The position numbers and the translations under genes were made by a program. A stretch of 64,000 nt of DNA from a virus. Below, piece after piece: positions 10,919-44,914 of this stretch. How positions within the stretch are numbered: position 1 is the stretch's first letter; every line of letters begins with the position of its first letter. The DNA lies in IMG/VR virus record IMGVR_UViG_3300045988_142974, positions 32,001 to 96,000 of that record; one strand, given 5' to 3'. The notes under the pieces are model-generated. The model was given only the letters and a program-made list of their open reading frames with translations. It was not told the origin of the DNA and did not search any database.

Positions 10919-10940
10919 ATTGTGTGATATACCTCCTTTC

Positions 10941-15404: not shown

Positions 15405-15677
15405 AATTTATTTCTCGCTTTCCACTCGCAAAACCAATTAAAATAGAGTGAGAGAGTAGTGCGAGTATCTACTATACCTGTGATGATCAGTCAAAGGTTT
15501 CTCACTCCATAAATCCAACCACCTGCAATCGAAACAGTAACAATCCTCTCATAGTTGGCTATATATTTATTCTCTTTTTTTATAACAAAAATTTAAAAAT
15601 AAATTCTTTATAATTGTATTTTGCTTATTTATGTATTAAAATAAATACATAAATTACTAATTAGGAGGGAGAAAATT

Positions 15678-16862: not shown

Positions 16863-17654
16863 TTAAGCTGTTTTATCAATCTTCTTAATAAACCTATCTT
16901 TAAGCATTTGTTCAATTTGTTTGTATGTAAAATCCATACTAATCAAACCAGTAACAATAGTTTCTACTTCCTCAACTTTTTTCAATTCATCTTCTGTAAA
17001 ACTATCTCTTAAAGCATCGTTCGTTTTTACATTTCGATCTAATCTAAGTGATTTTGCGTCACATCCCAAAATTACTTTATAAATCATATTAGTATAATTC
17101 GGATAAGCAAATTTCTTATGCTTACTTTCAGGAATATATCTTGAAATAGCAGAAGTCATTCTCTTTCTTTCAATAATTCCAACTTCACGCTGAATAGCCC
17201 ATGATTTTCTATCAATCTCTGTTTTCTCTTCAATATTAAGAAGATAATTTCTAATCTTTGTTGCTAACAAATTACTTGTCATTAGCATACCGATTCTAAG
17301 TAAAGATCTTTTTGTTAAAATAGTAAGACTTGAAGCATATGATAGGCTAGGTTCATTTGAACCTACCCCTAGTTCTTCCTTAAATTTCTTTAATTCTTGC
17401 CCTTTTAAAACAACCATACCATCTTCTTCGAATTCATCACGATTTCTTTTAATTAAGGTTTTGATTGTATCCATACTGCACTCATAATAATTTGCTGCTT
17501 GTTGAACTGTAACAACCATATCATCTGTCAGATATGGAATAACCTTCATTTTGTCAAGAAAGTCATAAGATACATTATCCAATGTTTCATTTCTCAATGT
17601 TTTACTTTCCGTATAAATTAGTTCTTTGTCATTTTGATTTTTCATATTTTTCAT
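16863..17654 (-). CDS. ORF6N (KilA-N/Bro-N-like) domain DNA-binding protein
   Basis: VTVQQAANYYECSMDTIKTLIKRNRDEFEEDGMVVLKGQELKKFKE matches the ORF6N pattern. ATG 17654 lies 8 nt after AGGAGG (the track ORF starts earlier). Confidence 0.65.
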   Translation of the reverse strand: MKNMKNQNDKELIYTESKTLRNETLDNVSYDFLDKMKVIPYLTDDMVVTVQQAANYYECSMDTIKTLIKRNRDEFEEDGMVVLKGQELKKFKEELGVGSNEPSLSYASSLTILTKRSLLRIGMLMTSNLLATKIRNYLLNIEEKTEIDRKSWAIQREVGIIERKRMTSAISRYIPESKHKKFAYPNYTNMIYKVILGCDAKSLRLDRNVKTNDALRDSFTEDELKKVEEVETIVTGLISMDFTYKQIEQMLKDRFIKKIDKTA

Positions 17655-17772
17655 GAAAGAATCCTCCTTTATTTTTTTTGATATAATAAAAAGAAGCCAC
17701 TTCATACGAAATGACTTCTCAAAAAAATTTCAATATTAAATTTCCAATGAAAGTGCAATTTACTTCACTTAG

Positions 17773-19208: not shown

Positions 19209-19282
19209 GGTGTTAGGTGGGATTTGAACCCACGATATTCAGAACCACAATCTGACGCTTTAACCTACTAAGCTACTAACAC
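19209..19282 (-). tRNA. tRNA-His (anticodon GTG)
   Basis: Perfect acceptor GTGTTAG/CTAACAC, anticodon stem TCAGA/TCTGA with loop TTGTGGT, T arm GTGGG-TTCAAAT-CCCAC. Position -1 is T, not the usual encoded G. Confidence 0.8.
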
Positions 19283-19284
19283 AG

Positions 19285-19355
19285 CGACTCTATTGGGAAT
19301 CGAACCAAATCTTCCGATAGACAGTCGGATGTAATTACCTTTATACCATAGAGCC
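19285..19355 (-). tRNA. tRNA-Asp (anticodon GTC)
   Basis: Acceptor GGCTCTA/TAGAGTC (one G-U pair), anticodon stem TCCGA/TCGGA with loop CTGTCTA, T loop TTCGATT. Confidence 0.75.
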
Positions 19356-19359
19356 ATAG

Positions 19360-19431
19360 CTGACTCGGTGGGGCTTGAACCCACAACGCCTCGATTAACA
19401 ATCGAGTGCTCTACCATTGAGCTACGAGTCA
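19360..19431 (-). tRNA. tRNA-Asn (anticodon GTT)
   Basis: Perfect acceptor TGACTCG/CGAGTCA, D stem GCTC/GAGC, anticodon stem CTCGA/TCGAG with loop TTGTTAA, T arm GTGGG-TTCAAGC-CCCAC. Confidence 0.85.
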
Positions 19432-20110: not shown

Positions 20111-21145
20111 TTAGACGAAAGCTTCATCGGCATCTTCTGTGTCCTCACGGATGACATACATCTGAGTTGTTTCGGAAGATTCGTGTCCCAAAAGTTTCTG
20201 TGCAGTTTCCAATGCACGATGGTCATAACATACCAGATTGGTTGCACGACTTCTCCGGAAATTATGTGGAGTCGTTCTCCTGCCAACAATTTCAGAAAAT
20301 TCATTTATGCACCAATCATTGAATGCACTATATCCAATCTGTCGTACCTTTGAACCATCTTTAGTTTTTACGACAAACATATAAGGGCAATCATCATCGC
20401 CACGCACTTCAAGCCATTTCTTTAATGCGTCCATTACATCTTGTCCAAACTGCAATTTTCTAACCTTACCAACGGCACTACGTCCCTTGCAACGAATCTC
20501 ATGTGTTTTGTAAGAAACAGATTCTACTTCTTGTTCTTTACCATCTTCATCGACAATTGTTACAATTTTCCTCTTAGGCTCATAATTAACAACCTCTTTG
20601 AGCAACTGTAAACTCTCTGCATGTCTGCATCCTGTAGAATATGTAAACTTTACATATGCTAATTTTTGCCATTCTTCACGTTCAGCCAATACAGAACATA
20701 AGTTATCCATTTCATCAGGCGTTAATGGTTCTTTTGCAAAAACCTTACCTGTTTTTGGCACTTGCATCTCAGCAGTTACATAATTACGGAACGTAGGATA
20801 GTCCTCATCGTAGAAATTCTCGATGAATTTATTCAATGCACTGACAGAAGACTTTTTAAATTTAATTGCAGCTTCAGATAGCCCACGATTAGCAAGAAAA
20901 TTCATATAGCGAAGAAATTCTTTCTTTCTAATTTCTATGCAGTTTTTGTTATTTAGGTTATTTTTAACCCATACGAAAAATATCTTTAATGCAGACCTAT
21001 AAGCATGTAAACTATGCGGTGAAAGATGAGTCTGATTACTGAGGTAATCTTCAACCATATTTCTATTAAACTCATTAACCTCTGCCCATTCCTCATCTGT
21101 AACTGGATCTAATTTATCTGCTATTTTACCATTCAATAATCTCAC
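20111..21145 (-). CDS. tyrosine recombinase / phage integrase family protein
   Basis: Catalytic signature in order: TGCRHAESLQL (Arg), HNFRRSRATN (His-x-x-Arg), LLGHESSETTQMYV (His...Tyr). It also has an N-terminal SAM-like core-binding region. Confidence 0.85.
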   Translation of the reverse strand: MRLLNGKIADKLDPVTDEEWAEVNEFNRNMVEDYLSNQTHLSPHSLHAYRSALKIFFVWVKNNLNNKNCIEIRKKEFLRYMNFLANRGLSEAAIKFKKSSVSALNKFIENFYDEDYPTFRNYVTAEMQVPKTGKVFAKEPLTPDEMDNLCSVLAEREEWQKLAYVKFTYSTGCRHAESLQLLKEVVNYEPKRKIVTIVDEDGKEQEVESVSYKTHEIRCKGRSAVGKVRKLQFGQDVMDALKKWLEVRGDDDCPYMFVVKTKDGSKVRQIGYSAFNDWCINEFSEIVGRRTTPHNFRRSRATNLVCYDHRALETAQKLLGHESSETTQMYVIREDTEDADEAFV

Positions 21146-27678: not shown

Positions 27679-28554
27679 TTACAAGGAAAACTCCGATTTT
27701 CTATTTGTGGTTATACGCTTTTTATTATATTTTTTATATCTTTTCAAGTCATTTTGTTTTCTACAATCATCGCAGTATAATCGTTTATTAGCTGTTTTTT
27801 CAATAATTCCACCACATCGTTTACAACGAGAATATTTATTATTGTGTCCACGCTTAACAGAGTAATAGTCTTTTTGGTAGTTTTGAAAATACGCATTTAA
27901 CGATCTATTGATGTACTTAACATAAAAATTATCTTCAGTAATAAAATCATAGTTATTTACAATCTGAGTCTTATCTTCATATTCTCCAATCAGTTTGCAA
28001 TTATCAAAACATTTTCTCAAAAATCCTTCAACAACCTTTTTATATTCATTCCAAGATAATATCATTTTCTCCTTTTGAAAACGTTGTTTGAGTTTTTCGG
28101 CTTCATCAATTACATCGTCAATAATACCAGTGGTTGTATTTGCATCCATCTCAGTTCCAGATAACCAATTGAAGTACATTAGCTTTGGTTTCTTTAATAA
28201 ATCCATGTACTCCTTATTGAGAATTACTTCTTTATCAAAATATCTTGTATAAATATTATTGATTTTCTGTCTGATAATAGCGCACCAATTTTCATCTTTA
28301 GTCATTGACTTGTAATATCTGTATTCAATTCCTGACCATGTATCAAATATTCGTCCAAGTTCTGTATCAAGTAAATCCTTTCTGACTTTAAAATGAATTG
28401 TTTTAATATATGTACGCCTTTTATTATCAGAAGCCCATATTGAGGAGCAGAACGAGTTGAATATCTCGTCCTTTACCTTATTATTCTCTGCTTCTTTGTA
28501 ATCTTCTATAATTTCATATAGAAATGTTTCATTACAGTCGTAAATATGTATCAC
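27679..28554 (-). CDS. hypothetical protein with C-terminal zinc ribbon, coupled to the RNA polymerase gene
   Basis: 291 aa. The GTG start overlaps the 3' end of 28532..31165 by 23 nt. CKRCGG...CDDC followed by a basic tail. Confidence 0.6.
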   Translation of the reverse strand: MIHIYDCNETFLYEIIEDYKEAENNKVKDEIFNSFCSSIWASDNKRRTYIKTIHFKVRKDLLDTELGRIFDTWSGIEYRYYKSMTKDENWCAIIRQKINNIYTRYFDKEVILNKEYMDLLKKPKLMYFNWLSGTEMDANTTTGIIDDVIDEAEKLKQRFQKEKMILSWNEYKKVVEGFLRKCFDNCKLIGEYEDKTQIVNNYDFITEDNFYVKYINRSLNAYFQNYQKDYYSVKRGHNNKYSRCKRCGGIIEKTANKRLYCDDCRKQNDLKRYKKYNKKRITTNRKSEFSL

Positions 28555-31165
28555 CTACCTCAAATTCATAGTATTTTCCAAGATATTCATATGAATTGTC
28601 CGTCTTATAAGGAACTTCTCTTATTGATATATTTCTTTTTGGATTCGTGTTATTCTTGAGATTTTCAATGATATAATCGCCATAAGCTGACCATGCAAGA
28701 GATTTGCTAATAGAAACAGAAGAGTAAGAAGCTTTAATAACATAGTTTGCTATAATATTTTCAGGCAATTCAATCTCATTTATGAGTTTCGTTTTATACT
28801 CATTTACGACTTCATCCATATTGAATTTATGGTCTTCATCATCCGACTTATCTCTATGTAGATTCAGATGCTGCTTAATATCAACCGCATACATATTTAT
28901 AAACTTCCTGCATTTCTTTAAGACTTTTCTATCAAACAAATCCAAATCATTATCAATAATTAAACATCTAGTATCAACCAAATCAATTTTATTATCCCAT
29001 AAGATATTTTTCTTTTCCCAAGTTTCAATATAATCACACAACTCATTCATAGGAGAAGGAGAGTGATATGCATTAAGATATTCTTTGTCCTCGTCAGAAG
29101 TATCTCTATTCTTTTTGATTATATTCATATAGGATTTCATTTTTTTAGGATAGTTATGAAGTAAGAAATATGGAAGCTGTTTAAGATGCTTTCTAAGACC
29201 TGAATTCATATGCCATCTGAATCCCGTTTTAAGGAAGTCAATTTCTTTGCCCTGAAAAATTCTTAGAAGAGAAGAGTAATCAGAATATAATTTTTGAATA
29301 TCTGGATTGGTCGTATATTTATTCTCTATACTTGTGGCAACATTAGTAATTTCACCAATACGATTATCTCTTGTCATTACTTCATACTCAATAAGATTCT
29401 CTTTTGTATATGGTTTTGATTGAGCGGTTACTTTGTCTTCAATATCAAGTATGATATGCTTATCTACCTTTGAATCAATAATGATAGGATCGTTGCTTAA
29501 ATAGAAAATATCACCATCAAAATCTGCGCCGCCTTGCTGTGGAGCTGATACATCATACATATTAAACATTACTACATCTTGGTCTTTAAAATAATCAAAC
29601 CATTTTGTAAGAATGTCATTTCGTACAATCTTAATCTTATTTACCTCTGATGGATCAACAAGCGGAGAACGGAATGAACAACAATATCCTGGTTCAAAAT
29701 TTGCTGTATATAATTCTCTTTCTCCAAGACAACCAACTGGTTCTTCACCAACGGCATACTGAAGATAACCAATCATATCACCAACACCTGTATGATAAAA
29801 CCCTGAACAATAAATTTTACCAACTTTTGCTTCATCAATAGACTTTTTGAGTTTTCTATAAATGAATTGCTTAACAGCAGGATCTTTTAACATAACATCA
29901 TTTACCAATGCAGCTTCAAGATATTTACTTTCTGGCTCATAATCTTCTGTATCAGTAATTCCCATGAATTTATATGTATAAAATTTATCACCTTTAATGA
30001 TTTTTTCATACATATTAGTGGTATATTTTGCAAGCTTAATGATTTTTCCATCATTCTTAGAATCTAATATGTCATAGTCCTTTTTTGTTTTATCTGTATA
30101 ACATTTGACATATTTATCATTCCAAAGATCCAGACATTGTAAATACTGAAAATTCATTCGTGTATATTTATTTAAATGCTTAATATGATGACTATATTTA
30201 CTGATACCAAGTTTGAATTCATACTTCCTAACAGTATTCATATATTCAATCCATGCGTTTTCACCATAAGTTGATTTAAAAATCTTATGCCCTTTAAACA
30301 TCGAAATATTCCAAATGCAATCTACATCATCAATATTATGAACATGCCCATAAATGTCAGTAATAGTGGTGTAACCCCATTCTTTAAGAATTTGTTTAAA
30401 TGGTACATATACAGAATATCCTTTAATAAATGGTAAACGTACCTGTGTTCCAATAACTTTGTAGTCTAATCCAAGTTGCTCACTCACAGTATTCATAAAG
30501 TTTTCTTCATGACAGCCACATCCGTCAAAAGGTGATAATCCAATATCTTTTAATCCTTCTTCAATTTCTCTGGTTTTATATTTCTTTTTCTTACCAGTAT
30601 TTTCATCAACAAATTCTTTTTCTCTTTCAACTACGTATTTAATAAGCTGATTTTTCAACGTTTTTTCATATTCACCTATAATTACAATATTAGGCATATA
30701 ATCTTTGATAAGAGTACATGAACTGAATGGTAAACATCTCTGAGCTTCGTACTTGGAAATAACACATTCATCAATTTTAATATCCATTTGAGTAATCAAA
30801 TATAACTCATCAAAAATTTCATCACATACAAATGCAGTAATTCCATCTTTACCTTGTGAAGCTGATTTGCCAAAACGAGAATAGTGAATTCCATTATATG
30901 TAAATCCATCATTTAGAATCTTTCTAAGTGATTCCTCTTGCTTTGGATTCTTCTTTGCAACAACCAACATAAGTTCACTTATATGAGATGATGATTCACC
31001 ACGAAGTCTCTGAATCTGATCAAATAAAGGAGAATCACCTTGCTTGATAAGATATTCTTTTTTGATTTCTGTATCTCTATTAATCTGAATATTAAAATCT
31101 CCATCAATAAGTTCTCTTATTGGGATTTTTACTAATGTATACTGTACCTTTTTTATAATTATCAC
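28532..31165 (-). CDS. YonO/RdRP-like single-subunit double-psi beta-barrel RNA polymerase
   Basis: VSAPQQGGADFDGDIFYLSNDP carries the universal DxDGD metal-binding motif. It is preceded by CCSFRSPLVDPSEV, the counterpart of the RNPxxHPGD strand of eukaryotic-type RdRPs. 877 aa, similar in size to SPbeta YonO. Confidence 0.75.
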   Translation of the reverse strand: MIIIKKVQYTLVKIPIRELIDGDFNIQINRDTEIKKEYLIKQGDSPLFDQIQRLRGESSSHISELMLVVAKKNPKQEESLRKILNDGFTYNGIHYSRFGKSASQGKDGITAFVCDEIFDELYLITQMDIKIDECVISKYEAQRCLPFSSCTLIKDYMPNIVIIGEYEKTLKNQLIKYVVEREKEFVDENTGKKKKYKTREIEEGLKDIGLSPFDGCGCHEENFMNTVSEQLGLDYKVIGTQVRLPFIKGYSVYVPFKQILKEWGYTTITDIYGHVHNIDDVDCIWNISMFKGHKIFKSTYGENAWIEYMNTVRKYEFKLGISKYSHHIKHLNKYTRMNFQYLQCLDLWNDKYVKCYTDKTKKDYDILDSKNDGKIIKLAKYTTNMYEKIIKGDKFYTYKFMGITDTEDYEPESKYLEAALVNDVMLKDPAVKQFIYRKLKKSIDEAKVGKIYCSGFYHTGVGDMIGYLQYAVGEEPVGCLGERELYTANFEPGYCCSFRSPLVDPSEVNKIKIVRNDILTKWFDYFKDQDVVMFNMYDVSAPQQGGADFDGDIFYLSNDPIIIDSKVDKHIILDIEDKVTAQSKPYTKENLIEYEVMTRDNRIGEITNVATSIENKYTTNPDIQKLYSDYSSLLRIFQGKEIDFLKTGFRWHMNSGLRKHLKQLPYFLLHNYPKKMKSYMNIIKKNRDTSDEDKEYLNAYHSPSPMNELCDYIETWEKKNILWDNKIDLVDTRCLIIDNDLDLFDRKVLKKCRKFINMYAVDIKQHLNLHRDKSDDEDHKFNMDEVVNEYKTKLINEIELPENIIANYVIKASYSSVSISKSLAWSAYGDYIIENLKNNTNPKRNISIREVPYKTDNSYEYLGKYYEFEVGDTYLRL

Positions 31166-33556: not shown

Positions 33557-34342
33557 TTATGCTCTTAATTTATTATTCTCCAAAATTTCTATCTGTTTTT
33601 TGATTTCCTCACATGGATCATATTTATTATCAATCCTTTGTCCATGTTCATCATTAATAAAATGTCTGTAATCAGCAAATACCTTTGGAGTAGTGGCGTA
33701 TTTTTCTTTGCCATTCTTAATATATTTTTCTCTCTTCATGTGCTGGCATTTTACAATTTTAAGTTCTTCCAAAATATCAACTATGCGACTGACATATCTT
33801 TCAGAAAGTCCAATATCTTCTGAAATAGTCTTAAAATATCTATAACAACATAGTGGTTTGCCATCCATTCGATTCAAATTAACACGAATATAAGAGAGTA
33901 CAAGTAGAATATAAGCTGATGATATTCTTGCAGTATCAATCTCTTTATCCTTCAATTCTTCTTTGAAATTTAATATTGTATCCAACTCATCAAAATAAAT
34001 AATTCCAAACTTATCAGGCACATCGAATTTGTCTATGTTCAATTTTACTTGCTGATATTTAACCGAATTGGTCTTTTCTTTTAGACATTTCCCAAAATCT
34101 GGACATGATTCAAAGTATCCATAATGAGAGAGAAGTGATAAAACTTCATAATATTTCTGATTTATCTTTCCATCTCTGTAGTTAGGTTTCAATTTAGACC
34201 AGCGGCAAAGTTCTGTTGTAGAAAATGCCACTGTGTCATCAAGTGAACGCCTTGCACAAAGATATGAGAAGATTATTACACGTTTAGACGAGAGATCTTT
34301 ATCATAGATGATTTCTCGTGGGATTTTTACATAGTTTGGCAA
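33557..34342 (-). CDS. RepA_N-like replication initiator candidate (winged-helix)
   Basis: The N-terminus YVKIPREIIYDKDLSSKRVIIFSYLCARRSLDD..TELCRW follows the RepA_N pattern of Bacillota plasmids. A C-terminal wHTH-like DIGLSERYVSRIVDILEELKIV is present. Confidence 0.45.
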   Translation of the reverse strand: MPNYVKIPREIIYDKDLSSKRVIIFSYLCARRSLDDTVAFSTTELCRWSKLKPNYRDGKINQKYYEVLSLLSHYGYFESCPDFGKCLKEKTNSVKYQQVKLNIDKFDVPDKFGIIYFDELDTILNFKEELKDKEIDTARISSAYILLVLSYIRVNLNRMDGKPLCCYRYFKTISEDIGLSERYVSRIVDILEELKIVKCQHMKREKYIKNGKEKYATTPKVFADYRHFINDEHGQRIDNKYDPCEEIKKQIEILENNKLRA

Positions 34343-34358
34343 GACGTATCACCTCACC

Positions 34359-35240
34359 TTAATCTACATAAAGCTGACAAGCAATCTTTAACAAAACATT
34401 TCCTTGTTGCATATCATTAACTATAAAGTCAACCTTTGGATAATTCCAATCAGGATGTTCAAGATTATTTTCTTTGAATTTTTTATCTGCCTTTTCCCAA
34501 TCTTTATAAAAATTAGGAAATGTCTTTGAAAATTCTTTATACATTGGAGTCCATTTAGCAGAACTATTCATACCACAAATTCGCTTTACCTCTTCTTTAT
34601 AATCTTCTACTCTTTTTACAGAAACATTTTTTCGAGCAATCTTATATTCTTTTTCTTTTTTTTCATATCTGATAATAGACTCCCTTATCTCATCTTGATT
34701 ACTCTCAAAATATGTAATAATATCTTTACTAAATGTGATTTTTTTCTTTTTTTTCTTTAGAATATGAATATAATTAAGCAATTCTTTATCTACAGATTCA
34801 TCAAAAATTGACTTAATAAAATACGAGTTTCTAAATTCGTTAATTTTCATATCGAAAATTCCATGCTCATATAAATAATATTTAAGATTAGTAGGAGCAA
34901 ACCCTGGAATATTTAACTCTCTACATAAAGTACGAATATCAAAAATATCATTGACTTCTGATGGTTTGAGTTCTGAATTATTTAAGTTATTGACAGTAAT
35001 TTCATCTTTTTTCTGTTCTTCTAAGATAGAAATTCTCTCAAGCAAATTCTTAATAGCTTTATTGATTTCGTTATTTTCTTCTTTATGTTTTAAATTGTAA
35101 TTATTAAGATCCAAATGAAGTTTGTTTACTTCTGCTTGAATTTCTTTATTTACAAATTGATTGATTATTCCTGTCTCATTGGTTGTAGACTCATCTACAA
35201 TTCTTTTGACATCCTGTTCATTTACAATAAGTTTACCCAT
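34359..35240 (-). CDS. coiled-coil protein, function unknown
   Basis: 293 aa. The N-terminal half has heptad-rich repeats. Its start overlaps the stop of the ParB-like gene. Confidence 0.6.
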   Translation of the reverse strand: MGKLIVNEQDVKRIVDESTTNETGIINQFVNKEIQAEVNKLHLDLNNYNLKHKEENNEINKAIKNLLERISILEEQKKDEITVNNLNNSELKPSEVNDIFDIRTLCRELNIPGFAPTNLKYYLYEHGIFDMKINEFRNSYFIKSIFDESVDKELLNYIHILKKKKKKITFSKDIITYFESNQDEIRESIIRYEKKEKEYKIARKNVSVKRVEDYKEEVKRICGMNSSAKWTPMYKEFSKTFPNFYKDWEKADKKFKENNLEHPDWNYPKVDFIVNDMQQGNVLLKIACQLYVD

Positions 35241-36400
35241 TAGTTCAATTCCTCCATATCAATTATATTTTTATTTGTAGTAACACCGATTGTTTCAGCC
35301 ATTGTTTCGCACCAATCATTCACCATATATATAATATTCTCTAAATTTTTTCTTAAAGCTGTATTATCTTTTATAACAGGTAGAATTTTGGAATATCTTA
35401 ATGGCGATAGAGTAGTAGATAATAATTTTTCTATTTCATTTACAAGAGTTGTAATGTCTTTTGAAATCTCAATAACGTTATAATCTCCACTTGGATCTAA
35501 ATTCAAAGTTGCTATATCATTTTTCAATTTTATGTATTCTTCGGATTCTTTTTTATATGATTGCAAAAGACTTTCACTAGATTCATTAGAAGATTTTAAT
35601 GTACTATTCATAATTTCCAAGTTATTGATTTTCGTCTTTAAGTTAGAAATTTGGGACATAGCTTCTTTATATTTATTCTCTAAATCATAATCAGTTTTAT
35701 CAATTATTTTTTCTTTGGCAGATTGTGATTTTAGCTGATTTATCTCGTTGATATATTTTTGAACTTCATTTTTAGTGATTTTCTTAGTTGTGTCCATAGA
35801 AGATATAAGTTCAATTTGTTCATCTTCAGATAGAGAAGCAATTAAATCAGAAGCAACAGTTTTTGAAATTATTCCATCATCAAGAAGTTGTTTCATTGGT
35901 TCTGTAAGATTTCGTTCAATGGATAAAGCTCTTGTGAGATTTGTCTTTGAAGTTCCTAATTGTTTAGCAATTTCATCAAGAGATAATTTAGAATTCCCAA
36001 CTTGGGAATTCTTCTCACGACCATTTCCAATTTCACCATGTTTATATCCACACAGTTTTACATACTCAACTGCAACTTTTCTCTGCTTTTTATCATCATT
36101 TTTACTTCTTCCAAAATTAGCAGCAAGCAAAACCTTTAGTTTTTTATCTTCATCAATTAAATCTTCTCTGATTCTAATTGGTACTATTTTTATTCCAAGT
36201 TCTTTTGCAGCTTTATAACGCTGATGTCCTGAAATAATAGTCATATCAGGTGAAACAATAATTTCCGAAATAATACCTTCTTCTTTTATAGAATTTTTAA
36301 ATTCTTCATACTCAGAACCAGAAATATCATCAAAAAATTCGGTATTACGTGGATGCACCTTTAAAATATCAATAGACACATTCGTTATTTCTTTACCCAT
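35240..36400 (-). CDS. ParB/Srx-fold N-terminal domain protein with HTH and coiled-coil tail
   Basis: ILKVHPRNTEFFDD...IISGHQRYKAAKELGIKIVPIRI (ParB-like nuclease/CTPase box), followed by the HTH SLDEIAKQLGTSKTNLTRALSI. Confidence 0.8.
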   Translation of the reverse strand: MGKEITNVSIDILKVHPRNTEFFDDISGSEYEEFKNSIKEEGIISEIIVSPDMTIISGHQRYKAAKELGIKIVPIRIREDLIDEDKKLKVLLAANFGRSKNDDKKQRKVAVEYVKLCGYKHGEIGNGREKNSQVGNSKLSLDEIAKQLGTSKTNLTRALSIERNLTEPMKQLLDDGIISKTVASDLIASLSEDEQIELISSMDTTKKITKNEVQKYINEINQLKSQSAKEKIIDKTDYDLENKYKEAMSQISNLKTKINNLEIMNSTLKSSNESSESLLQSYKKESEEYIKLKNDIATLNLDPSGDYNVIEISKDITTLVNEIEKLLSTTLSPLRYSKILPVIKDNTALRKNLENIIYMVNDWCETMAETIGVTTNKNIIDMEELN

Positions 36401-36533
36401 TTTCTTTCCTTTCTTCTAAAACATAATTTACAGTTACAATTTGTGAGATGAGATAATAAGTGATTCAATAATATATTCTCCATTTGAATTCACAAAAACA
36501 TTAAAAGTTGCACTTGCATGAAATTGTTATAAA

Positions 36534-36765
36534 TTCATTTAGGTACATACAGCATGTACCCAAAAGTGAAAATTTACTTCATTTGGGTACATCCTAGCTA
36601 TCAATTTTGTGCAGTCTATATCTATATAGACTCATATTATCAAGAGAAGAATATTACGCTTGTATTTCGCTTACGCTTCATACAAGCTCTTTAATTTTTT
36701 GTTTGATTGTTATTGGTTGATTTAGATATATGGTGTTTTGGATTGATGGTTTCATTTGGGTACAT
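36534..36765. repeat. 15-bp repeats TTCATTTrGGTACAT (three direct, one inverted) upstream of the ParB-like gene
   Basis: Direct copies at 36534-36548, 36578-36592 and 36751-36765. An inverted core lies at 36554-36566, forming the palindrome GGTACAT-acagc-ATGTACC. A further palindrome AGTCTATAT-c-TATATAGACT lies at 36613-36631. Confidence 0.75.
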
Positions 36766-36996
36766 ATATGACGTACCTATAGTTTTATTCTCTGTTACAG
36801 ATATTTTTCTTGCCATTCATATCCACATGTATAACAGTGATATTCATAATAATAATGTAATGAGAAAAATGTTTCTTTTGATACAAAATTCAAATCTAAC
36901 CCTTTTGTTTTACCTTTTTGGTAACTCGTTTATAATATTTTTCTCCACATATAGGACAAGTTTTTTACGAATGGTATTTTTAATGATTCAAAATTT

Positions 36997-37395
36997 TTAC
37001 CTTTGCTCATTTATTTTATTCCTTTCTGTTTGCTCCAAATCAACATATCTCTCTTTAAAAATATCCTCTACAAAAAATACTGGCAATTTATCATGATATT
37101 TTTCATATAATTCCTCGTCAGGAATATGAGAGTAACATTTACCTATTGGTGAATTAACTTCTCTAACATAATCTTTTATAATAGATTTGTTTTTCTTGAA
37201 TCGCTCATTTATTTTTCCACAAATAGTACAGTAGGTATATAAACCTGTATTAAGATGAGTTTTTTCTATAAATGTGGATCTGTATTGAATCAAGCATTCT
37301 TCATATTGATGTTTGTGTTTGGATTTTCGGTTACTCTTTGAGATATTGCTTTCTTTTTGTTTAAGATATTTTTGGTATGTCTTGGTTTTTGACAT
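36997..37395 (-). CDS. hypothetical basic protein
   Basis: 132 aa, ATG at 37395, follows 37399..37632 with a 3-nt gap. Confidence 0.6.
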   Translation of the reverse strand: MSKTKTYQKYLKQKESNISKSNRKSKHKHQYEECLIQYRSTFIEKTHLNTGLYTYCTICGKINERFKKNKSIIKDYVREVNSPIGKCYSHIPDEELYEKYHDKLPVFFVEDIFKERYVDLEQTERNKINEQR

Positions 37396-37398
37396 TTG

Positions 37399-37632
37399 TT
37401 AATTTCCACGTAGGAACTCCTTTCGTTTCTTAAATATTTCCTTATGTTCATTTCTCTTTTTGAATAGATCTTCGCATACGCATATAATTATGTAATCTAC
37501 ATCATTAATATTTCCGTATTCTTGACAATCATGTTGAGCTGGTATCCACCAATCGTTATATAACTCATCAGTAGAAGCACAAGATAAGTTATTGTAAAAT
37601 CTTTGATATAATTCTATTTCTTGTAGCTGCAT
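37399..37632 (-). CDS. hypothetical small protein
   Basis: 77 aa, ATG at 37632. Confidence 0.55.
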   Translation of the reverse strand: MQLQEIELYQRFYNNLSCASTDELYNDWWIPAQHDCQEYGNINDVDYIIICVCEDLFKKRNEHKEIFKKRKEFLRGN

Positions 37633-37756
37633 AATAATTCTTTCTTATCTTATTTTGATATTTTCTATATAGTTATATTCTCTGATTTTTCAGATTAGAG
37701 CATGTATAGATGTGTATAGTTTTTTCATACCCCTGTTTGTGGACAAAAAATGAGTT

Positions 37757-37771
37757 TTTGAGGGTGAATTT
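37757..37771 (+). repeat. left copy of TTTGAGGGTrAAwTT word flanking the toxSAS gene
   Basis: TTTGAGGGTGAATTT. Compare TTTGAGGGTAAAATTT at 39808-39823. Confidence 0.6.
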
Positions 37772-37878
37772 CAATTTTTATGTCTTAGGTGATAACTTAT
37801 AAGGGTATGAGATGAAAGTGACTAATTTTTCTCTTCGCGTTGATTTACTTCCTAAATAGATTAATACAATTCTGTCAG

Positions 37879-37959
37879 CTAATTCATCAAATATATTTCT
37901 GAAGAGTTACATGATAAGTTATTAAATGTTTCTGTTGTAATTAATGTTAAGTTACTCAT
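37879..37959 (-). CDS. 26-aa peptide ORF with strong SD
   Basis: AAAGGAGG 7 nt before the ATG. MSNLTLITTETFNNLSCNSSEIYLMN. It lies 345 nt downstream of the toxSAS gene on the same strand. Confidence 0.35.
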   Translation of the reverse strand: MSNLTLITTETFNNLSCNSSEIYLMN

Positions 37960-38257
37960 ATAGAGTCCTCCTTTTAAATTTATTATTTTTTGTTTGGCGA
38001 GAGTAGTGTGACGATTATTTACAATAGATTATTCTCTTATATAAATTTGATTTATGAATTTTTGGCATTGTATGGATATGTTAATTAACAAAGAGAGTTA
38101 ATATAAAATTCTTTACATGGGATATAAGGGGTAAAATTAATGATTCGGAGTCTATTTTGGATTTTTATATATCAGGTGGCTAGTTGTTAGGGTAGAAGGG
38201 TAAAATTGAAATTTGAGCCGTGAAAGTGGATTTTAATATAAGGATAATAAGGATATA

Positions 38258-38283
38258 AAAATAACAGACATCACTGCCTGTTA
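38258..38283 (-). terminator. weak terminator after the toxSAS gene
   Basis: The minus strand reads AACAG-gcagtgatgt-CTGTT followed by ATTTTTAT. Confidence 0.4.
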
Positions 38284-38304
38284 TTTAGAATAATTAATAT
38301 TAAC

Positions 38305-39423
38305 TTATATTATAGAAGCGTTGTATTTTTCTACAATCGTTCTAAGTTTTGTAACAAAATGAGAGATGTCAACAAAATAATTTGGATATGCTAATCTTAA
38401 TGTTTCAAATGATGAGGCAGATACAAGTACAACATTTTTGTCAGAATTTTGTTCAATCTGATCGTAAGCTTTTGTAGCATATTCAAGATTTTTAAATGGT
38501 CTAACTTGTACGGTCTTTTTGTTATAATCAAGCAACAATATATAATATAAATTCTTATTTTTCTGATTGAATTTTTTACTTGCATAATCAATAGATACAT
38601 TTAATCCGCTTAATGTAGATATTATGTTATTTTTATTATCAAGATAATTAATTTCTTTGATTAATTCATCCATCCAATCAGAAGTATTAGGGCATACTGG
38701 CATTTTTTCTTCAATAGCAAATATAGATGATACCAATTCAAAAAATCTAAGGATATCATAATCACCTTGACTAGATTTAAGATTACTGTTTGTATATATA
38801 CCCATCATTTCTACAGCAGTTGCCCACATATGTTGCAATTTTGTGCGGAATTGGACTTCTATAAACATATTTTTATTATAAGTATCTTTTTTGTCACTAT
38901 AGAATTGATATACCATATGATAAGATCTATATCCTGATTGTTTTGGGTTAGCAATATAATCATATTCACGTTTAAGTATATGCCTTATTCGAGAGTTTTT
39001 ATACTTGTCAACCGCTTCATATACTTGCTCTATAGTATCTACGATTACACGACAACCACCTAAATCTTGCATTTTATATAATTGCATTTCGGGAAATCTT
39101 TGAATCTTGCCGGTTATAGATTCTAAACGTTTTAATCTTTGAACAACTATAGCATTAGGATTCTTCTTTCTAAGGTTGCTACATATAATTTGTAAAGGAT
39201 ATGCGTGTGCAGCTCTCCAATTGTTTAATATGACTAGTGCTTTTTTACGTTCTTCAGACGTTGAAAATGGATCAGCTATTATTTTTCCTGCTTTATTAAT
39301 CTGATTGCCTGAATATTTAGGTACTTCCCATTTTTCTTTATTGTTACTTAACATAAATTCCTCCTCAATACTTTTGATAATGGTATCTAAGTCAAGTATA
39401 TCACTTTTTACAATAGTTTTCAT
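38305..39423 (-). CDS. RelA/SpoT-domain protein, toxSAS class with C-terminal extension (CapRel-like fused toxin-antitoxin candidate)
   Basis: Motifs in order: NNWRAAHAYPLQ, RLKRLESITGKIQR, MQDLGGCRVIV, PKQSGYRSYHMVY, IEVQFRTKLQHMWATAVE. These are followed by a non-catalytic tail of about 150 aa. Confidence 0.8.
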   Translation of the reverse strand: MKTIVKSDILDLDTIIKSIEEEFMLSNNKEKWEVPKYSGNQINKAGKIIADPFSTSEERKKALVILNNWRAAHAYPLQIICSNLRKKNPNAIVVQRLKRLESITGKIQRFPEMQLYKMQDLGGCRVIVDTIEQVYEAVDKYKNSRIRHILKREYDYIANPKQSGYRSYHMVYQFYSDKKDTYNKNMFIEVQFRTKLQHMWATAVEMMGIYTNSNLKSSQGDYDILRFFELVSSIFAIEEKMPVCPNTSDWMDELIKEINYLDNKNNIISTLSGLNVSIDYASKKFNQKNKNLYYILLLDYNKKTVQVRPFKNLEYATKAYDQIEQNSDKNVVLVSASSFETLRLAYPNYFVDISHFVTKLRTIVEKYNASII

Positions 39424-39689
39424 GATAAAATCATTCCTTTCTTTATTTTAATTATTATGACATTTATAATTATTTATTCTCGTTATTGTTTATGAGTTTT
39501 ATTTAATATTGTGCATTGCTGTCTTTTTGTATAAAGGTTAAGTAATTAATATTATTTTTCACCTGTTTTTATGGTAATTATGGGGAGTTTATTGAAATTT
39601 ATGTGTAGTTTTATCGTAGCCCTCTGTATTGTCTTAAATGTAAAATTTTTAATTGGAAAAGTGATATCGGTAAAATTACTTATTTATAT

Positions 39690-39900
39690 AGAAGAAACGA
39701 GATTTTGGTATTGGATTTTGTGATGCAGGATTTTTAATTTTGGGGTTCAAAGATGGTTGAAAGTGGCTTGGTTAGTGGGTTTGAGCGATATGGGGTACGA
39801 TAAAGGGTTTGAGGGTAAAATTTGGGATTTTTGCTTGATTTTTAGTGGAAAATTAGAAATTATTTTGAAGTAAAATTTTGAAGTTGGTATGTAGATGAAT
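39690..39900 (+). repeat. C-depleted G/T-rich tract with reiterated short words
   Basis: By eye, only about 6 C in about 205 nt. GGGTTTGAG occurs twice (39777, 39805). TTTGAGGGTAAAATTT lies at 39808. GTAAAATT and GGATTTT recur. Similar tracts lie at 38100-38270 and 40600-40730. Confidence 0.65.
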
Positions 39901-39970
39901 CAGCTATAGGCTCTGTTGCATTTCCAGTCCTATTAGTTAGTTTTTACTACCCCCAGTTAGCTATATTTCA

Positions 39971-40238
39971 CGGTATTTGTACATTTTACCGTAGGATTTT
40001 AGAAGCTTCCTAGAGCGGTATTTATATAGTTTTGAAAACTATGTAATGTGGTTTTGATATTATTATTACATATAGTTTCAAGCTATGACATATCGTTTAT
40101 CATAGTTTTATTCTATATACAATAATTCAAATAAAAACTTTGAAAAGTTATTGACAAATTCGATTTAATATAGTAAACTACAATTAATCAATAACAAGTT
40201 GATTTAATTGAATCAACAAAGAAGTTCTAAAAAACTTC
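39971..40238. repeat. cluster of AT-rich palindromes/hairpins (origin-like)
   Basis: CGGTA..TACCG (39971-39991). A perfect ATAGTTTT-g-AAAACTAT (40026-40042). CTATGA..TCATAG (40083-40105). CAATTAATCAA..TTGATTTAATTG (40181-40210). GAAGTT..AACTTC (40221-40238). Confidence 0.6.
40151..40179 (+). promoter_or_regulatory. possible sigma-A promoter (weak -10)
   Basis: TTGACA, a 17-nt spacer, then TAAACT. Confidence 0.3.
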
Positions 40239-40247
40239 AATAAGTTG

Positions 40248-40276
40248 TTGACAACTACACAAAAGTGTAGTACAAT
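40248..40276 (+). promoter_or_regulatory. near-consensus sigma-A promoter with palindromic operator in the spacer
   Basis: TTGACA, a 17-nt spacer, then TACAAT. The spacer contains the perfect palindrome CTACAC-aaaa-GTGTAG (40255-40270). Confidence 0.75.
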
Positions 40277-40282
40277 ATAATT

Positions 40283-40510
40283 GTTCCAAAGGGGAACGAA
40301 AACACGGTACATAGTACCAACGATACTTTCCCTAAAGAGCAAAAAAGCGGTGAGGCGCTTCCAACACCAACACCGCAAAGGGGAATACTTAGATTCTCAA
40401 TCAGTCTAAGTATAACAAGCCAGTTCTGACTTGTCAATCCCCAACAAAATACCTTTTCCCATCCGTGGGAACTGGTACAACCGCAAAAGTCCATCCGTGG
40501 ACTTGAGCAA
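40283..40510 (+). ncRNA. ATG-free, multi-hairpin RNA (stand-alone ncRNA or first part of an ~830-nt early leader)
   Basis: No ATG in any frame from about 40283 to 40560. At least seven stems are present, including GTTCC/GGAAC, GGTAC/GTACC, GCGGTG/CACCGC, ACTTAGA/TCTAAGT and ACAAG/CTTGT. Twin hairpins TTCCCA-TCCG-TGGGAA and AGTCCA-TCCG-TGGACT share the core CCATCCGTGG. Confidence 0.55.
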
Positions 40511-41109
40511 AAATTTGTACATTGACAAACAAATATTGAAAGCAAGTATCTGATAGATATTTGAAAGTTTACTCATACTGGTTTAAATCCGTATGTTACA
40601 AGTATGCTGATTTAAGAATGGGAAAAGTTCGGGCTTATAGCTTAGATTTTCGGGTTGAAAGTAGCTTAAATTTTAACTGGTGTGAGTGAATGAGTAGGAA
40701 AAGGGTAGGCGAAAACAAGTAAATATTTTATAAAATCCGTAAATCCGTTTCATTAGCGGATATTTCAGGCGGTAACAATTGAATTAGGCTAACTAATTAG
40801 CCTTAAAGCGGTTAGAGAGTACAGACAACGGGGACACTGTACAAATTATCATAGTCGGTGGGCTTGCATTCTGCGAGTCTGTTTAACAAATAAGTTTAGG
40901 CTATGAGTTTATCTCATTTGATAAACAACAAAACTATTGTAGTGGTTTTTGGTTTGAGAAAAACTTTTTACCACTTATCAACTAAAAAGGTGTAACACGG
41001 CTACAACTGGGCATTACATATAAATAAGTCCTAATGTTGTAAAGGTCTAAAGCCCTTGTAAACAGTGGATAGCACTATAACTATATTTGAAATTTAAGGA
41101 GGTACTACT

Positions 41110-41733
41110 ATGAGTACAACAAAAAATAACAAAAAAGCAACTATTAATACGGCATCTGTAAAGGTGCAGTTTATGACTTCATCAAAGGACTTTACTGAAA
41201 CTATGGCTAAATTCTGGATTGCAATTAATCAGATGGCAGATAAAAAGCTTATTCTTCAAAACAACTTACGGATTAGCAAGGAATGGGCAGAACTCAAAAA
41301 GGATGATGCTGAGGCTCAGGCTATGTATTTAGCAGATGTTGAAAAGTATCAGGCAGAATTTGACGCATTTAAAGAAGAATACAATAAGCGTATTGACTCT
41401 TGCTATGAACTTTTAACAGATGAATTATACTCTGCTTACACTACATCAGAGGAAGAGTTTAAGAAGGCTATAAAAGAGTGGTTCTCTGCTCAGAAAATTG
41501 AAGCTACACCTACACTTATTAGCTTTATGACTGTAGCAGTAGGCTATAAAAACAGTAGCAATAAGCAGTTATTCAAGACTGGGAATGCTTTGTCTTATAA
41601 GGCTAAGACTACATTCAAAAATAGCTTTATGAGAGCACTTGCACAGCTTATGAAGGATAAGAATGCACTCAAAACAGATGCTTACAAATATACATACGTT
41701 GAACCAGAAAAGAAAAACAATAAGACAAACTAA
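41110..41733 (+). CDS. hypothetical protein (first gene of rightward arm)
   Basis: ATG 7 nt after AAGGAGG. 207 aa with Lys-rich termini. No motif recognised. Confidence 0.8.
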   Translation: MSTTKNNKKATINTASVKVQFMTSSKDFTETMAKFWIAINQMADKKLILQNNLRISKEWAELKKDDAEAQAMYLADVEKYQAEFDAFKEEYNKRIDSCYELLTDELYSAYTTSEEEFKKAIKEWFSAQKIEATPTLISFMTVAVGYKNSSNKQLFKTGNALSYKAKTTFKNSFMRALAQLMKDKNALKTDAYKYTYVEPEKKNNKTN

Positions 41734-41786
41734 CTTGTAAACACGCAACAAATCCGCTATACTATAAATAGGAAGGCGGTGAAAGG

Positions 41787-41978
41787 ATGGAAGAAATGAA
41801 TAACCAGGAAACAATTAAAATTTGTGTAGAAGAATTTTCACGCTTGCAGGAATGGATGGGAATGACAGAAAAGGAAACGCCTTTATATAAGTCAATGCAG
41901 GTGCGCTATAGAGATTTAAAAGTCATTCTATCTGCTTTAGGCGTGAATGTAACGGAACTTGATGTAATAAAAGAATAA
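41787..41978 (+). CDS. hypothetical small protein
   Basis: 63 aa. GAAAGG adjoins the start (an alternative ATG lies at 41796). A terminator follows. Confidence 0.55.
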   Translation: MEEMNNQETIKICVEEFSRLQEWMGMTEKETPLYKSMQVRYRDLKVILSALGVNVTELDVIKE

Positions 41979-41990
41979 TTGCAGAGTGGA

Positions 41991-42012
41991 GGCAGGCTTT
42001 GAGCCTGCCTTT
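41991..42012 (+). terminator. intrinsic terminator
   Basis: GGCAGGC-tttga-GCCTGCC followed by TTT. Confidence 0.65.
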
Positions 42013-42100
42013 AATGCACTATTTCAGTGTATGAAATAGCGGTCACAAGTCCGCAATTTAATTGTCGGTGGAGATAGTATCAAGAGCCGTGGAGGAAACT

Positions 42101-42520
42101 ATGACATCATTAATATTAAAGGGAATTGGAACAGCTATAAGATTTTCAAACGGAGTGTGCATATTAAACGCAACTCCACATCCACTCACGATGCAAGATA
42201 CAAACGGAGATCTTGTGACAGTTCCAACAAGTGTCCTCATTAATGCAAAGGCAGAAGAAAAAGCAGTAAATGACTTATTCGTAACAACTGTTTTTGTCGG
42301 TACGCCTGAGGGAAAAGAAATCATAAGGGACATAGAAGGAACCTATAGGGAAACCGGATGCGCTGATAGGCTTGTAATTGTCGGCAGTATTATTGCGTCT
42401 CAGGCATATCCAGGTAAAGTAGTTGGATTGTGTCCAGTTCCAGGGTTTGAACGTGTCACACCAAGCGAAAAGAGAATGCGCTGTGACAAGTTTACAGTAT
42501 TCACAGAAAATGAGGTATAA
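42101..42520 (+). CDS. hypothetical protein
   Basis: ATG 5 nt after GGAGG (the track ORF begins at an upstream TTG, 42062). 139 aa. Confidence 0.7.
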   Translation: MTSLILKGIGTAIRFSNGVCILNATPHPLTMQDTNGDLVTVPTSVLINAKAEEKAVNDLFVTTVFVGTPEGKEIIRDIEGTYRETGCADRLVIVGSIIASQAYPGKVVGLCPVPGFERVTPSEKRMRCDKFTVFTENEV

Positions 42521-44095: not shown

Positions 44096-44914
44096 ATGAA
44101 ATTTAATTTTGATACAATTTTAGTCCACGGAGGGACGTTTCATGCAGACGATGTAATGAGCGTTGCCCTGTGTGAGATTCTTAACCCTTGTATTAAGGTA
44201 AAAAGGGAGTTCTGTGTATCAGATAAACTCCCGGAAACTACCTTAATTGCGGACATAGGAGGTGGAAAATACGATCATCACCAGGTAGACGCAAAAATAA
44301 GAGAAGACGGACTCAAAAGAGCTGCCTGTGGGTTGATATTTGAAGACTACGGACACCTTCTTTTTTCAAAGAACGGATATGAAATCTTTGAGAAGAATTA
44401 TATAATTCCAATCGAAGATATAGATAATGGAGTAGGTGAAGGAAATCCACTGTCTTCTTTTATATCAAGTTTAAATCCGTTCTGGGATTCTGCTGACCCA
44501 GAAACGGAAACAAAAGAAGGTTTTAGGAAAGCAGTAGATTTTTGTAAAGAAATTATTTCCCGAAATATAGCTAGAGACTTAGCTATGGGCAAGGCAAAAA
44601 CAGAAGTTGAAGAAGCCTTAAAAGGAGTGACCGATAATGGTCTTATAATCCTTAAAAAATACATTCCACCCATTATGTTTGTGGGCACAGAAGCAAAACT
44701 TTTGGTAATGCCATCAAACAGGGGCGGTTGGAATATCCTTACTATAAAAGTAGATAAGGATAGTTCCAAAGACATCATATGTTTGCCTGAAGAATGGTTA
44801 GAAAATAAACCAGAAGGTTGTACTTTTGTACATACTGCACGGTTTATTGCGGCTTTTAACACAAAAGGAGCTGCAATCACAGCAGCAAAAACTGTTTTAA
44901 ACCAAACACAGTAG
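44096..44914 (+). CDS. MYG1/UPF0160-family (DHH-superfamily) metal-dependent phosphoesterase/exonuclease
   Basis: ILVHGGTFHADDVMSVAL and DIGGGKYDHHQ reproduce the two N-terminal MYG1 signature blocks. 272 aa. AAGGAGG lies upstream. Confidence 0.75.
   Translation: MKFNFDTILVHGGTFHADDVMSVALCEILNPCIKVKREFCVSDKLPETTLIADIGGGKYDHHQVDAKIREDGLKRAACGLIFEDYGHLLFSKNGYEIFEKNYIIPIEDIDNGVGEGNPLSSFISSLNPFWDSADPETETKEGFRKAVDFCKEIISRNIARDLAMGKAKTEVEEALKGVTDNGLIILKKYIPPIMFVGTEAKLLVMPSNRGGWNILTIKVDKDSSKDIICLPEEWLENKPEGCTFVHTARFIAAFNTKGAAITAAKTVLNQTQ

Follow-up and report, generated by a model that had tools for sequence, protein, structure and literature searches.

The window analysed in this study comprises 64,000 nucleotides of viral DNA (positions 32,001 to 96,000 of IMG/VR record IMGVR_UViG_3300045988_142974), and it carries on its minus strand, at 38305..39423, a CapRel-type gene, that is, a gene for a toxic small alarmone synthetase (toxSAS) fused to its antitoxin. 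The gene starts with ATG and encodes 372 amino acids (aa). An earlier reading of the letters alone, referred to below as the original prediction, had pointed to this open reading frame (ORF) and quoted five motifs as the signature of a toxSAS protein. The ORF was present at these coordinates and all five motifs were found in its translation in the claimed order, namely NNWRAAHAYPLQ (residues 67-78), RLKRLESITGKIQR (96-109), MQDLGGCRVIV (118-128), PKQSGYRSYHMVY (160-172) and IEVQFRTKLQHMWATAVE (188-205). The C-terminal extension that had been described behind these motifs was found as well, with a length of ~160 aa and without any Pfam domain. As also predicted, no ORF other than the CapRel gene reached 100 aa in the ~3.5 kb from 37633 to 41109.

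The domain layout follows that of fused CapRel proteins. A RelA_SpoT domain (PF04607) was detected at residues 95-211 (E 8.5e-21, 74.8 bits against a cut-off of 27), and this match together with residue mapping placed the toxSYNTH (pyrophosphokinase) domain at residues 32-240 (38704..39330, minus strand, as are all parts of the gene), where it holds R96, R125 and Y165. Linker/anchor helices that join toxin and sensor occupy residues 241-275 (38599..38703), with helices at 251-265 and 267-273 in an AlphaFold2 (AF2) model. A pseudo-zinc-finger sensor/antitoxin core, modelled as three strands and a helix and devoid of Cys and His, corresponds to residues 276-330 (38434..38598). It is followed by a C-terminal anchor (38356..38433) with the scaffold residues V332, L333 and A345 and with a YXXY motif, Y346-P-N-Y349, whose coordinates were verified as 38377-38388. 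The hexapeptide AYPNYF within this anchor is identical between the window protein and CapRel(SJ46).

Homology searches related the protein over its full length to the fused toxin-antitoxin CapRel(SJ46). In a sequence search of the PDB, the two CapRel entries 7ZTB_A and 9ERV_A were far in front (E 8e-40, query residues 32-356), and the match included the C-terminal region, whereas synthetases of the RelQ/RelP type matched only over the catalytic core (E 3e-14 to 4e-8); the CapRel match was thus more than 25 orders of magnitude better. Among 50,697 phage genomes, the best tblastn match was Salmonella phage SJ46 (32.6% identity over 86% of the query), where it landed on a gene annotated as 'RelA/SpoT family protein'. 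In PADLOC, PDC-S33 was the single matching model, end to end, with E 3.7e-120. CapRel(SJ46) itself matched the same single model end to end (E 7e-87), and PDC-S33 therefore amounts to the fused-CapRel family. A full-length match was also obtained with PHROG 4773 ('unknown function'; E 1.1e-93). The family is very large: matches at E<=1e-30 fell into 1370 clusters at 50% identity, of which most were 340-370 aa long and aligned end to end, and relatives at 66-100% identity were plentiful in human-gut assemblies.

Two other classes of RelA/SpoT-domain enzymes were considered and rejected. Housekeeping small alarmone synthetases (SAS), such as RelQ/YjbM and RelP/YwaC, are single-domain proteins of ~200-230 aa; the window protein has 372 aa and an extra domain, and it scored 67.9 bits against the cut-off of 320 of the RelQ/YjbM equivalog NF053588 in NCBIfam, over residues 86-203 only. 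Long RelA/SpoT homologues (RSH; RelA/SpoT/Rel) are proteins of ~700 aa with HD hydrolase, TGS and ACT domains. The corresponding spoT_relA model TIGR00691 gave 34.2 bits against a cut-off of 499, and no HD or TGS domain was found in the CapRel-type protein with Pfam. Placement in the CapRel clade relies on proxies, that is, on CapRel(SJ46) being the best match both in the PDB and in phage genomes and on one shared PADLOC profile; no match to PhRel, FaRel2 or PhRel2 emerged at the thresholds applied (E<=1 for PDB sequences, E<=1e-5 for tblastn against phage genomes). By sequence, Foldseek and PADLOC alike, the nearest homologues were CapRel(SJ46) and other fused CapRel proteins rather than RelQ/RelP, and every defining feature of a fused CapRel that can be examined in a sequence was present: toxSYNTH, a fused C-terminal antitoxin, YXXY with its scaffold, and no partner gene.

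We then aligned the window protein with CapRel(SJ46) and 117 cluster representatives (n=119) to map functional residues. In CapRel(SJ46), R79 and R116 coordinate the adenine of ATP and Y155 of the G-loop is needed for defence, while constitutive toxicity results from mutating YXXY (Y352, Y355) or A77, V338, L339, A341 and A351 (PMC9712102). The first three residues correspond to R96, R125 and Y165 of the window protein and were invariant (119/119), so that the catalytic synthetase residues, the loss of which would have spoken against the original prediction, are intact. Five of the autoinhibitory positions were identical in the two proteins (V338 to V332, L339 to L333, A351 to A345, Y352 to Y346, Y355 to Y349), each being at least 94% conserved among the 119 sequences. 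The remaining two differ, A77 being replaced by V94 (A or V in 101 of the 119) and A341 by S335 (S is the family majority). The C-terminal extension is thus homologous to the antitoxin/sensor domain of CapRel and retains YXXY, as the predicted layout implied.

Identity to SJ46 was unevenly distributed, with 40% in toxSYNTH, 26% in the first anchor, 25% in the pseudo-zinc-finger core and 42% in the YXXY anchor. The sensor is therefore the most divergent functional part of the protein, as has been reported for the CapRel family (PMC9712102). L280 and L307, which contact the trigger in SJ46, were not conserved. It has been reported that toxSAS enzymes that target tRNA are neutralised by a YXXY-bearing pseudo-zinc-finger domain (pseudo-ZFD) placed at the ATP donor site, and that those producing (pp)pApp are blocked at the acceptor site instead (PMC11782079). 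Given this dichotomy, the presence of YXXY argues, by analogy, for the tRNA-modifying class.

Structure prediction was consistent with these assignments. The AF2 model, built with 43 homologues, had a mean pLDDT of 81.8 and a pTM of 0.81. Foldseek against the PDB again placed 9ERV_A and 7ZTB on top (E 2e-17, ~352 columns, TM 0.61-0.69), which carry the labels of Salmonella CapRel, alone and in complex with Bas11 Gp54; RelQ/RelP structures followed with E 3e-7 or weaker and over 150-230 columns only. Among the viral predicted structures of BFVD, only partial matches to the catalytic domain were found by Foldseek, including a weak one to a phage protein annotated as Tas1. The sensor region was modelled as strands 279-281, 292-299 and 304-310, helix 313-326 and strand 330-336, and the count of Cys and His in residues 276-336 was zero. 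The rmsd to 9ERV/7ZTB was high (10-12 Å) despite good TM, and the model puts a short helix at 347-350 (P347-F350). We conjecture that both features of the model may fit a closed state compared with open-state crystals.

These data also bear on the possibility that the protein is an alarmone synthetase proper, which would make (p)ppGpp like RelQ/RelP to reprogramme the host, or toxic (pp)pApp like FaRel/Tas1, without modifying tRNA. The catalytic domain is of the RelA_SpoT family, RelQ/RelP structures were significant matches (sequence E 1e-14 to 1e-8, Foldseek E ~1e-6), a Tas1-annotated protein was among the weak structural matches, and substrate choice is not readable from sequence with the methods used. 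However, the RelQ/YjbM and long-RSH models scored far under their cut-offs, the CapRel match was better by the margin given above and extended over the full length, and the pseudo-ZFD/YXXY lock at the donor site is tied to tRNA-targeting toxSAS (PMC11782079) and belongs to a C-terminal domain that housekeeping SAS do not have. We consider an alarmone synthetase unlikely.

To describe selection, dN/dS (the ratio of nonsynonymous to synonymous divergence) was calculated per region by the Nei-Gojobori method for 27 distinct alleles of at least 74% identity from the retrieved loci, with dS being ~0.5 in all regions. The values were 0.08 for toxSYNTH, 0.07 for the YXXY anchor, 0.17 for the linker, 0.16 for the sensor core, 0.36 for the N-terminal extension and 0.31 for the C-terminal tail. 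Selection on the gene is thus purifying; it is most stringent in the catalytic and autoinhibitory regions, with an about twofold relaxation in the sensor. Positive selection on the sensor domain was unsupported on average; the domain is merely relaxed relative to the toxin domain, and a constrained toxin with a relaxed sensor is the pattern described for CapRel.

Several relatives carried disrupted copies. A nonsense codon replaced the Q108 position in locus L022 (10001-11140), frameshifts were present near residue 149 in L039 (the L116 copy, listed with it, is also frameshifted) and near residue 75 in L053, and the L054 copy was truncated after ~residue 286. A further frameshift, near residue 298 in L052, would delete the autoinhibitory C-terminus. 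These cases may be real loss and decay or errors of sequencing or assembly. Together with a 26-aa remnant-like ORF and conserved non-coding debris downstream of the window gene, they could indicate a decaying, non-functional passenger. Yet the window copy is intact and keeps all functional residues, dN/dS is 0.07-0.08 in just those parts on which the toxin and its inhibition depend, and an identical protein was found on several independent contigs, all of which makes a dead gene highly improbable.

The gene appears to form a unit of its own. A Shine-Dalgarno-like AAAGGA was read from the sequence at 39435..39440 (minus strand), 11 nt upstream of the ATG, and an intrinsic-terminator-like hairpin with a 12-bp stem, a GUGA loop and a U-run lies at 38255..38286 (minus strand), starting 19 nt past the stop codon (fold -13.3 kcal/mol, z -3.97 against shuffles). 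The original prediction had noted the lack of an adjacent antitoxin or alarmone hydrolase, and this was borne out when the flanks were searched with Pfam, PHROGs and PADLOC. Downstream on the minus strand lie two ORFs with no assigned function and no match in these three collections, one of 77 aa (37399..37632) and one of 132 aa (36997..37395). The 77-aa ORF was rejected as a partner, being present among CapRel loci only in L012, L036 and L115 and accompanying only near-identical CapRel alleles. More generally, the downstream neighbour varied among phages carrying the CapRel gene, and no conserved partner was seen.

Non-coding DNA surrounds the gene on both sides. At 37711-38240 it is conserved in 20-30 related loci and contains the 26-aa ORF MSNLTLITTETFNNLSCNSSEIYLMN (37879-37959, minus strand), which has a strong ribosome-binding site, AAAGGAGG; a similar peptide start, MSNLKLITTETFNNL, was found in L085. 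This small ORF may be the remnant of an antirepressor-type gene or a real micro-ORF. The 1.7 kb upstream of the CapRel gene contained no long ORF and no Rfam match at E<=0.1. Two facing, near-consensus sigma-70-like promoters were observed in 40151-40471, one on the plus strand (TTGACA-17-TACAAT, 40248-40276) and one on the minus strand (TTGACA-17-TG-TATACT, 40437-40409), with four terminator-like hairpins on the minus strand between them, such that ~120 nt would be transcribed from both strands. The arrangement was kept in the closest relatives only and suggests an antisense or transcriptional-interference switch at the point where two gene arrays diverge.

Further out on the plus strand, two other elements were observed. 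A type-P5 twister ribozyme (RF02684), the sole Rfam match at E<=0.1 in the region scanned, was detected at 41980-42054 (49.3 bits against a gathering score of 37.6, E 3e-8), where it fills the 83-nt gap between ORFs 41787-41978 and 42062-42520. A putative 3'-5' exonuclease of the MYG1 family (PF03690, E 6e-26) is encoded at 44096-44914, ~4.7 kb from the CapRel gene and on the opposite strand, and is kept in the close relatives L002 and L003. A connection of this exonuclease with tRNA 3'-end repair would be pure speculation.

The window as a whole is phage DNA, as shown by genes for a portal protein, large terminase, endolysin, exonuclease, homing endonucleases and ParB-like proteins. A nucleotide search with 36000-42000 gave no match in the 50,697 deposited phage genomes, and the phage therefore has no close deposited relative. 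A tyrosine recombinase of the XerC/D-like type (20111-21145, minus strand; PHROG integrase E 2e-32, Pfam Phage_integrase E 2.9e-17) is encoded midway along the minus-strand array and adjoins a His-Asp-Asn tRNA cluster at 19209-19431. Antirepressor-type genes are present at 16863-17705 (ORF6N) and 62315-63070 (Bro-N/ANT). In IMG/VR we found dozens of syntenic contigs of 135-165 kb, and the same synteny was also met within larger contigs, of 0.2-1 Mb and in one case of 1.57 Mb; in L010 an integrase lies near the CapRel gene. The tyrosine recombinase, the antirepressors and the embedding of relatives in contigs of 0.2-1.57 Mb are most simply explained by a temperate phage of ~150 kb.

An 877-aa protein (28532-31165, minus strand) matched the Pfam RdRP family PF05183 of two-barrel polymerases (E 3.7e-11), a family that we take to include the YonO-type single-subunit RNA polymerase of prophage SPbeta. 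The protein is likely a YonO-like phage RNA polymerase, and since it was 93-99% identical over dozens of gut phage contigs of ~150 kb, it is a useful marker for this phage family. The eight tRNA genes counted in the original prediction were recovered with ARAGORN, seven of them reaching the Rfam gathering score. All are on the minus strand at 16.7-27.5 kb (Trp x2, Glu, His, Asp, Asn, Pro and Met), and no link between them and the CapRel gene was found. As to the host, a scan of genome-collection contigs with the single protein gave no match, and an alignment-based rescan found relatives of 39-68% identity in Clostridiaceae, Lachnospiraceae (Lacrimispora, Agathobacter, Lactonifactor, Mediterraneibacter) and Oscillospiraceae; a single relative, at 39%, fell outside these groups, in a metagenome-assembled genome (MAG) of Hyphomicrobiaceae.

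Two structural genes of this phage are interrupted. On the minus strand, phrog_4088 is in two pieces, 6252-6692 (profile positions 16-117) and 4433-4990 (163-331), with a GIY-YIG endonuclease (5145-5702) between them, and phrog_5251 is likewise split into 2275-2880 and 259-864 around an HNH endonuclease (978-1829). The joined phrog_4088 pieces are the candidate for the major capsid protein of the phage. The original prediction had spoken of a spliced capsid gene. Splitting by homing-endonuclease ORFs was indeed seen for these two genes, but splicing is an assumption: no Rfam intron model matched 1-15500 at E<=0.05, and the group I and group II intron models had no match in the split genes.

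Comparison of related phages showed that the CapRel gene occupies a bounded, variable slot. Sister phages found through a ParB-like neighbour (91-92% identical) have no CapRel gene and carry in its place, in the same orientation, a gene for a 325-aa DUF3825 protein (Pfam E 8e-57), which had no match in PADLOC or the PDB. In sister phages these proteins range from 325 to 351 aa, and copies lie in the slot at L062:7595-8572, L071:6664-7689 and L069:7602-8657 and also in L088, L092, L096, L107 and L109. Our literature search found nothing on DUF3825 or PDC-S33. The window itself is a mosaic in this region, with 37210-39907 being ~96% identical to CapRel-bearing phages without the ParB module and 33566-37372 being 93% identical to CapRel-free phages; the breakpoints fall at 37210-37405, near the 132-aa ORF. 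This ORF follows the slot in most sister phages, whatever the cargo, and forms its conserved downstream border.

The upstream border is a conserved non-coding block of 178 nt (39730-39907, minus strand), 307-484 nt upstream of the ATG. On the gene strand it is C/A-rich and G-poor and has an invariant core, TTATCGTACCCCATATCG..AAACCCACTAA, that is unique in the window, and it was common to CapRel-bearing, DUF3825-bearing and empty loci. A riboswitch-like leader was rejected, as RNAalifold on the block gave zero pairs; the block may act as an operator, serve the phage polymerase as a promoter or represent a rut-like leader.

A less biased census used the RNA polymerase (93-99% identical) as bait and yielded 42 loci, 33 of them with the slot in reach. 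CapRel was present in 8 of the 33, DUF3825 alone in 9 and neither in 16. Five of the eight CapRel loci carried DUF3825 in tandem behind CapRel, which rejects the two genes as strict alternatives. In loci without either gene, the slot measured 0.55-3.9 kb and its cargo was varied, including an endonuclease-like protein of 344 aa and an antirepressor-like protein, and in L066 and L089 it held nothing. Since the slot holds CapRel, DUF3825, both, other cargo or nothing among sisters, CapRel is moron-like accessory cargo without an obligate partner. Another occupant of the slot (L083:5834-6409, also in L094 and L102) encodes a 191-aa P-loop protein with the Walker A motif GCNNTGKT, whose best PDB match, a weak one (E 1.6e-4), is an OLD-family ATPase. 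It is followed by an ORF of 76-128 aa (L083:6437-6667), and the pair is a possible minimal two-gene defence candidate.

The census also speaks to a use of the gene by the phage itself, either as a timed lytic shut-off of host translation (perhaps sensing its own capsid, with phage tRNAs compensating) or as a prophage addiction module. The gene heads a long minus-strand array with replication, tRNA, lysis and structural genes, and the phage encodes eight tRNAs, both of which would suit such a role. But 25 of the 33 sisters, with their 93-99% identical RNA polymerase, do not have the gene and carry unrelated cargo in its stead, and it is thus not part of the core lytic programme; in addition, it has its own terminator. 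The phage tRNA set showed no discernible relation to known toxSAS preferences, such as that of FaRel2 for tRNA-Gly and tRNA-Thr (bioRxiv 10.1101/2024.07.05.602228), and a fused toxin-antitoxin does not provide the separately degradable antitoxin needed for post-segregational killing. A role of this kind is quite improbable.

We consider it likely that the gene encodes a one-polypeptide, autoinhibited CapRel-type toxin-antitoxin, in which tRNA pyrophosphorylation triggered by a foreign phage aborts the infection and protects lysogen and prophage. What the data show directly is homology with conserved residues, a predicted fold, purifying selection, and the accessory status and temperate context of the gene; its tRNA target, its autoinhibition, the class of its trigger, its expression during lysogeny and the abortive-infection phenotype we infer by analogy with CapRel(SJ46). 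In the resting state, the C-terminal pseudo-zinc-finger domain would be folded back, with Y346 and Y349 of YXXY plugging the ATP donor site between R96 and R125. An incoming foreign phage protein would bind the sensor domain and cause the plug to be withdrawn; in CapRel(SJ46) the trigger is a major capsid protein or a small unrelated protein. The released toxSYNTH would, judging by homology, move pyrophosphate from ATP onto the 3' CCA terminus of tRNAs, and translation in the infected cell would shut down, so that the rival phage fails to multiply. The beneficiary would be the lysogen, and the prophage with it, because the gene is a self-contained accessory that a temperate phage carries in a variable slot. 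The abortive-infection or superinfection-exclusion module proposed in the original prediction fits this setting.

Several observations weigh against this assignment. The disrupted copies in several relatives show that the gene is dispensable. The sensor core shares just 25% identity with that of SJ46 and does not have its 9-residue beta6-beta7 loop, and the trigger is therefore not inferable from SJ46. The AF2 alignment was shallow, its 43 sequences all being at least 66% identical. No convincing promoter was found beside the gene (43 promoter-like sites against 35 expected from the AT-rich background), and the nearest near-consensus promoter on the minus strand lies ~985 nt upstream and is followed by terminator-like hairpins. 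The gene is co-oriented with the long replication, structural and lysis array, so that expression in the lysogen can only be presumed. Finally, the nearest genome matches, MAGs of Clostridiaceae and Lachnospiraceae, had at most 68% identity and do not pin down the host species.

Phage-encoded fused CapRel is already known, and PADLOC and PHROGs already contain the family. CapRel(SJ46) itself is encoded by a temperate phage (PMC9712102), a phage-encoded CapRel and many prophage-borne SAS were listed as early as 2020 (PMC7229694), and the fused form is predominant and occurs in Firmicutes (PMC9712102). The CapRel-like, phage-borne reading of the original prediction therefore stands, but it describes a published paradigm and not an open layout. 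What goes further than that prediction is the bounded variable cargo slot, which in a large family of gut phages is also used by DUF3825 and other genes. A more tentative idea is that the slot between the 178-nt leader and the 132-aa ORF is a dedicated, exchangeable defence-cargo slot, with DUF3825 as a new anti-phage effector and the leader as a common expression platform; we regard this as possible but rather doubtful. If true, CapRel would be just one among various cargos that can replace each other or be stacked, within a large and so far undescribed family of ~150 kb temperate phages of gut Clostridia with a YonO-like RNA polymerase.

The findings carry the CapRel paradigm, which was defined by experiment, beyond the prophages of enterobacteria to large temperate phages that infect human-gut Clostridia, and they leave the understanding of the CapRel mechanism unchanged. 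To our knowledge, almost no defence biology has been tested in phages of human-gut Clostridia. The 27 natural alleles, with a conserved toxin, a diverging sensor and near-identical backbones, could be used to map CapRel recognition in phages of Gram-positive bacteria, and the variable slot flags DUF3825 and the small P-loop protein as further candidates for defence genes. In addition, members of this family are misleadingly annotated as 'GTP pyrophosphokinase / ppGpp synthetase' in public sources.

Among characterized systems, RelQ/YjbM and RelP/YwaC share the catalytic fold and motifs with the window protein, but they are homotetrameric (p)ppGpp synthetases without a C-terminal sensor/antitoxin domain. 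FaRel2-ATfaRel2 of Coprobacillus sp. D7 and PhRel2-ATphRel2 of Bacillus are toxSAS systems of Firmicutes that pyrophosphorylate tRNA-CCA, and they are neutralised by pseudo-ZFD antitoxins that place YXXY, a motif also present in the window protein, at the ATP donor site (PMC11782079). They differ in being bicistronic, with an antitoxin that acts in trans, is circularly permuted and assembles with the toxin into heterotetramers, and they had no PDB sequence match to the window protein at E<=1. PhRel-ATphRel (gp29-gp30), a toxSAS system encoded by the prophage of Mycobacterium phage Phrann, prevents superinfection; the PhRel toxin corresponds by homology to one half of fused CapRel and its antitoxin to the other, and the PhRel and CapRel clades are sisters (PMC7229694, PMC9712102). 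It consists of two genes, however, and because Phrann gave no tblastn match among the phage genomes at E<=1e-5, its PhRel is more distant from the window protein than CapRel(SJ46) is.

PDC-S33, a candidate defence family of PADLOC, and PHROG 4773, both of which the window protein matches end to end, are computational families with no assigned function. The closest counterpart is CapRel(SJ46) (PDB 7ZTB, 9ERV; PMC9712102, PMC11578894). Differences lie in overall identity (~32%), in the missing beta6-beta7 loop and ~20 extra N-terminal residues of the window protein, in the host (low-GC gut Clostridia as against an enterobacterium) and in the carrier, a phage of ~150 kb with a YonO-like RNA polymerase being unrelated to the P1-like plasmid prophage SJ46. 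The two proteins are nevertheless alike in length (372 and 373 aa), in the order of toxSYNTH, anchor helices, pseudo-ZFD and YXXY anchor, and in the ATP-binding arginines, the G-loop tyrosine, YXXY and the scaffold equivalent to V338/L339/A351, and both are encoded by a single gene without a partner on a temperate phage.

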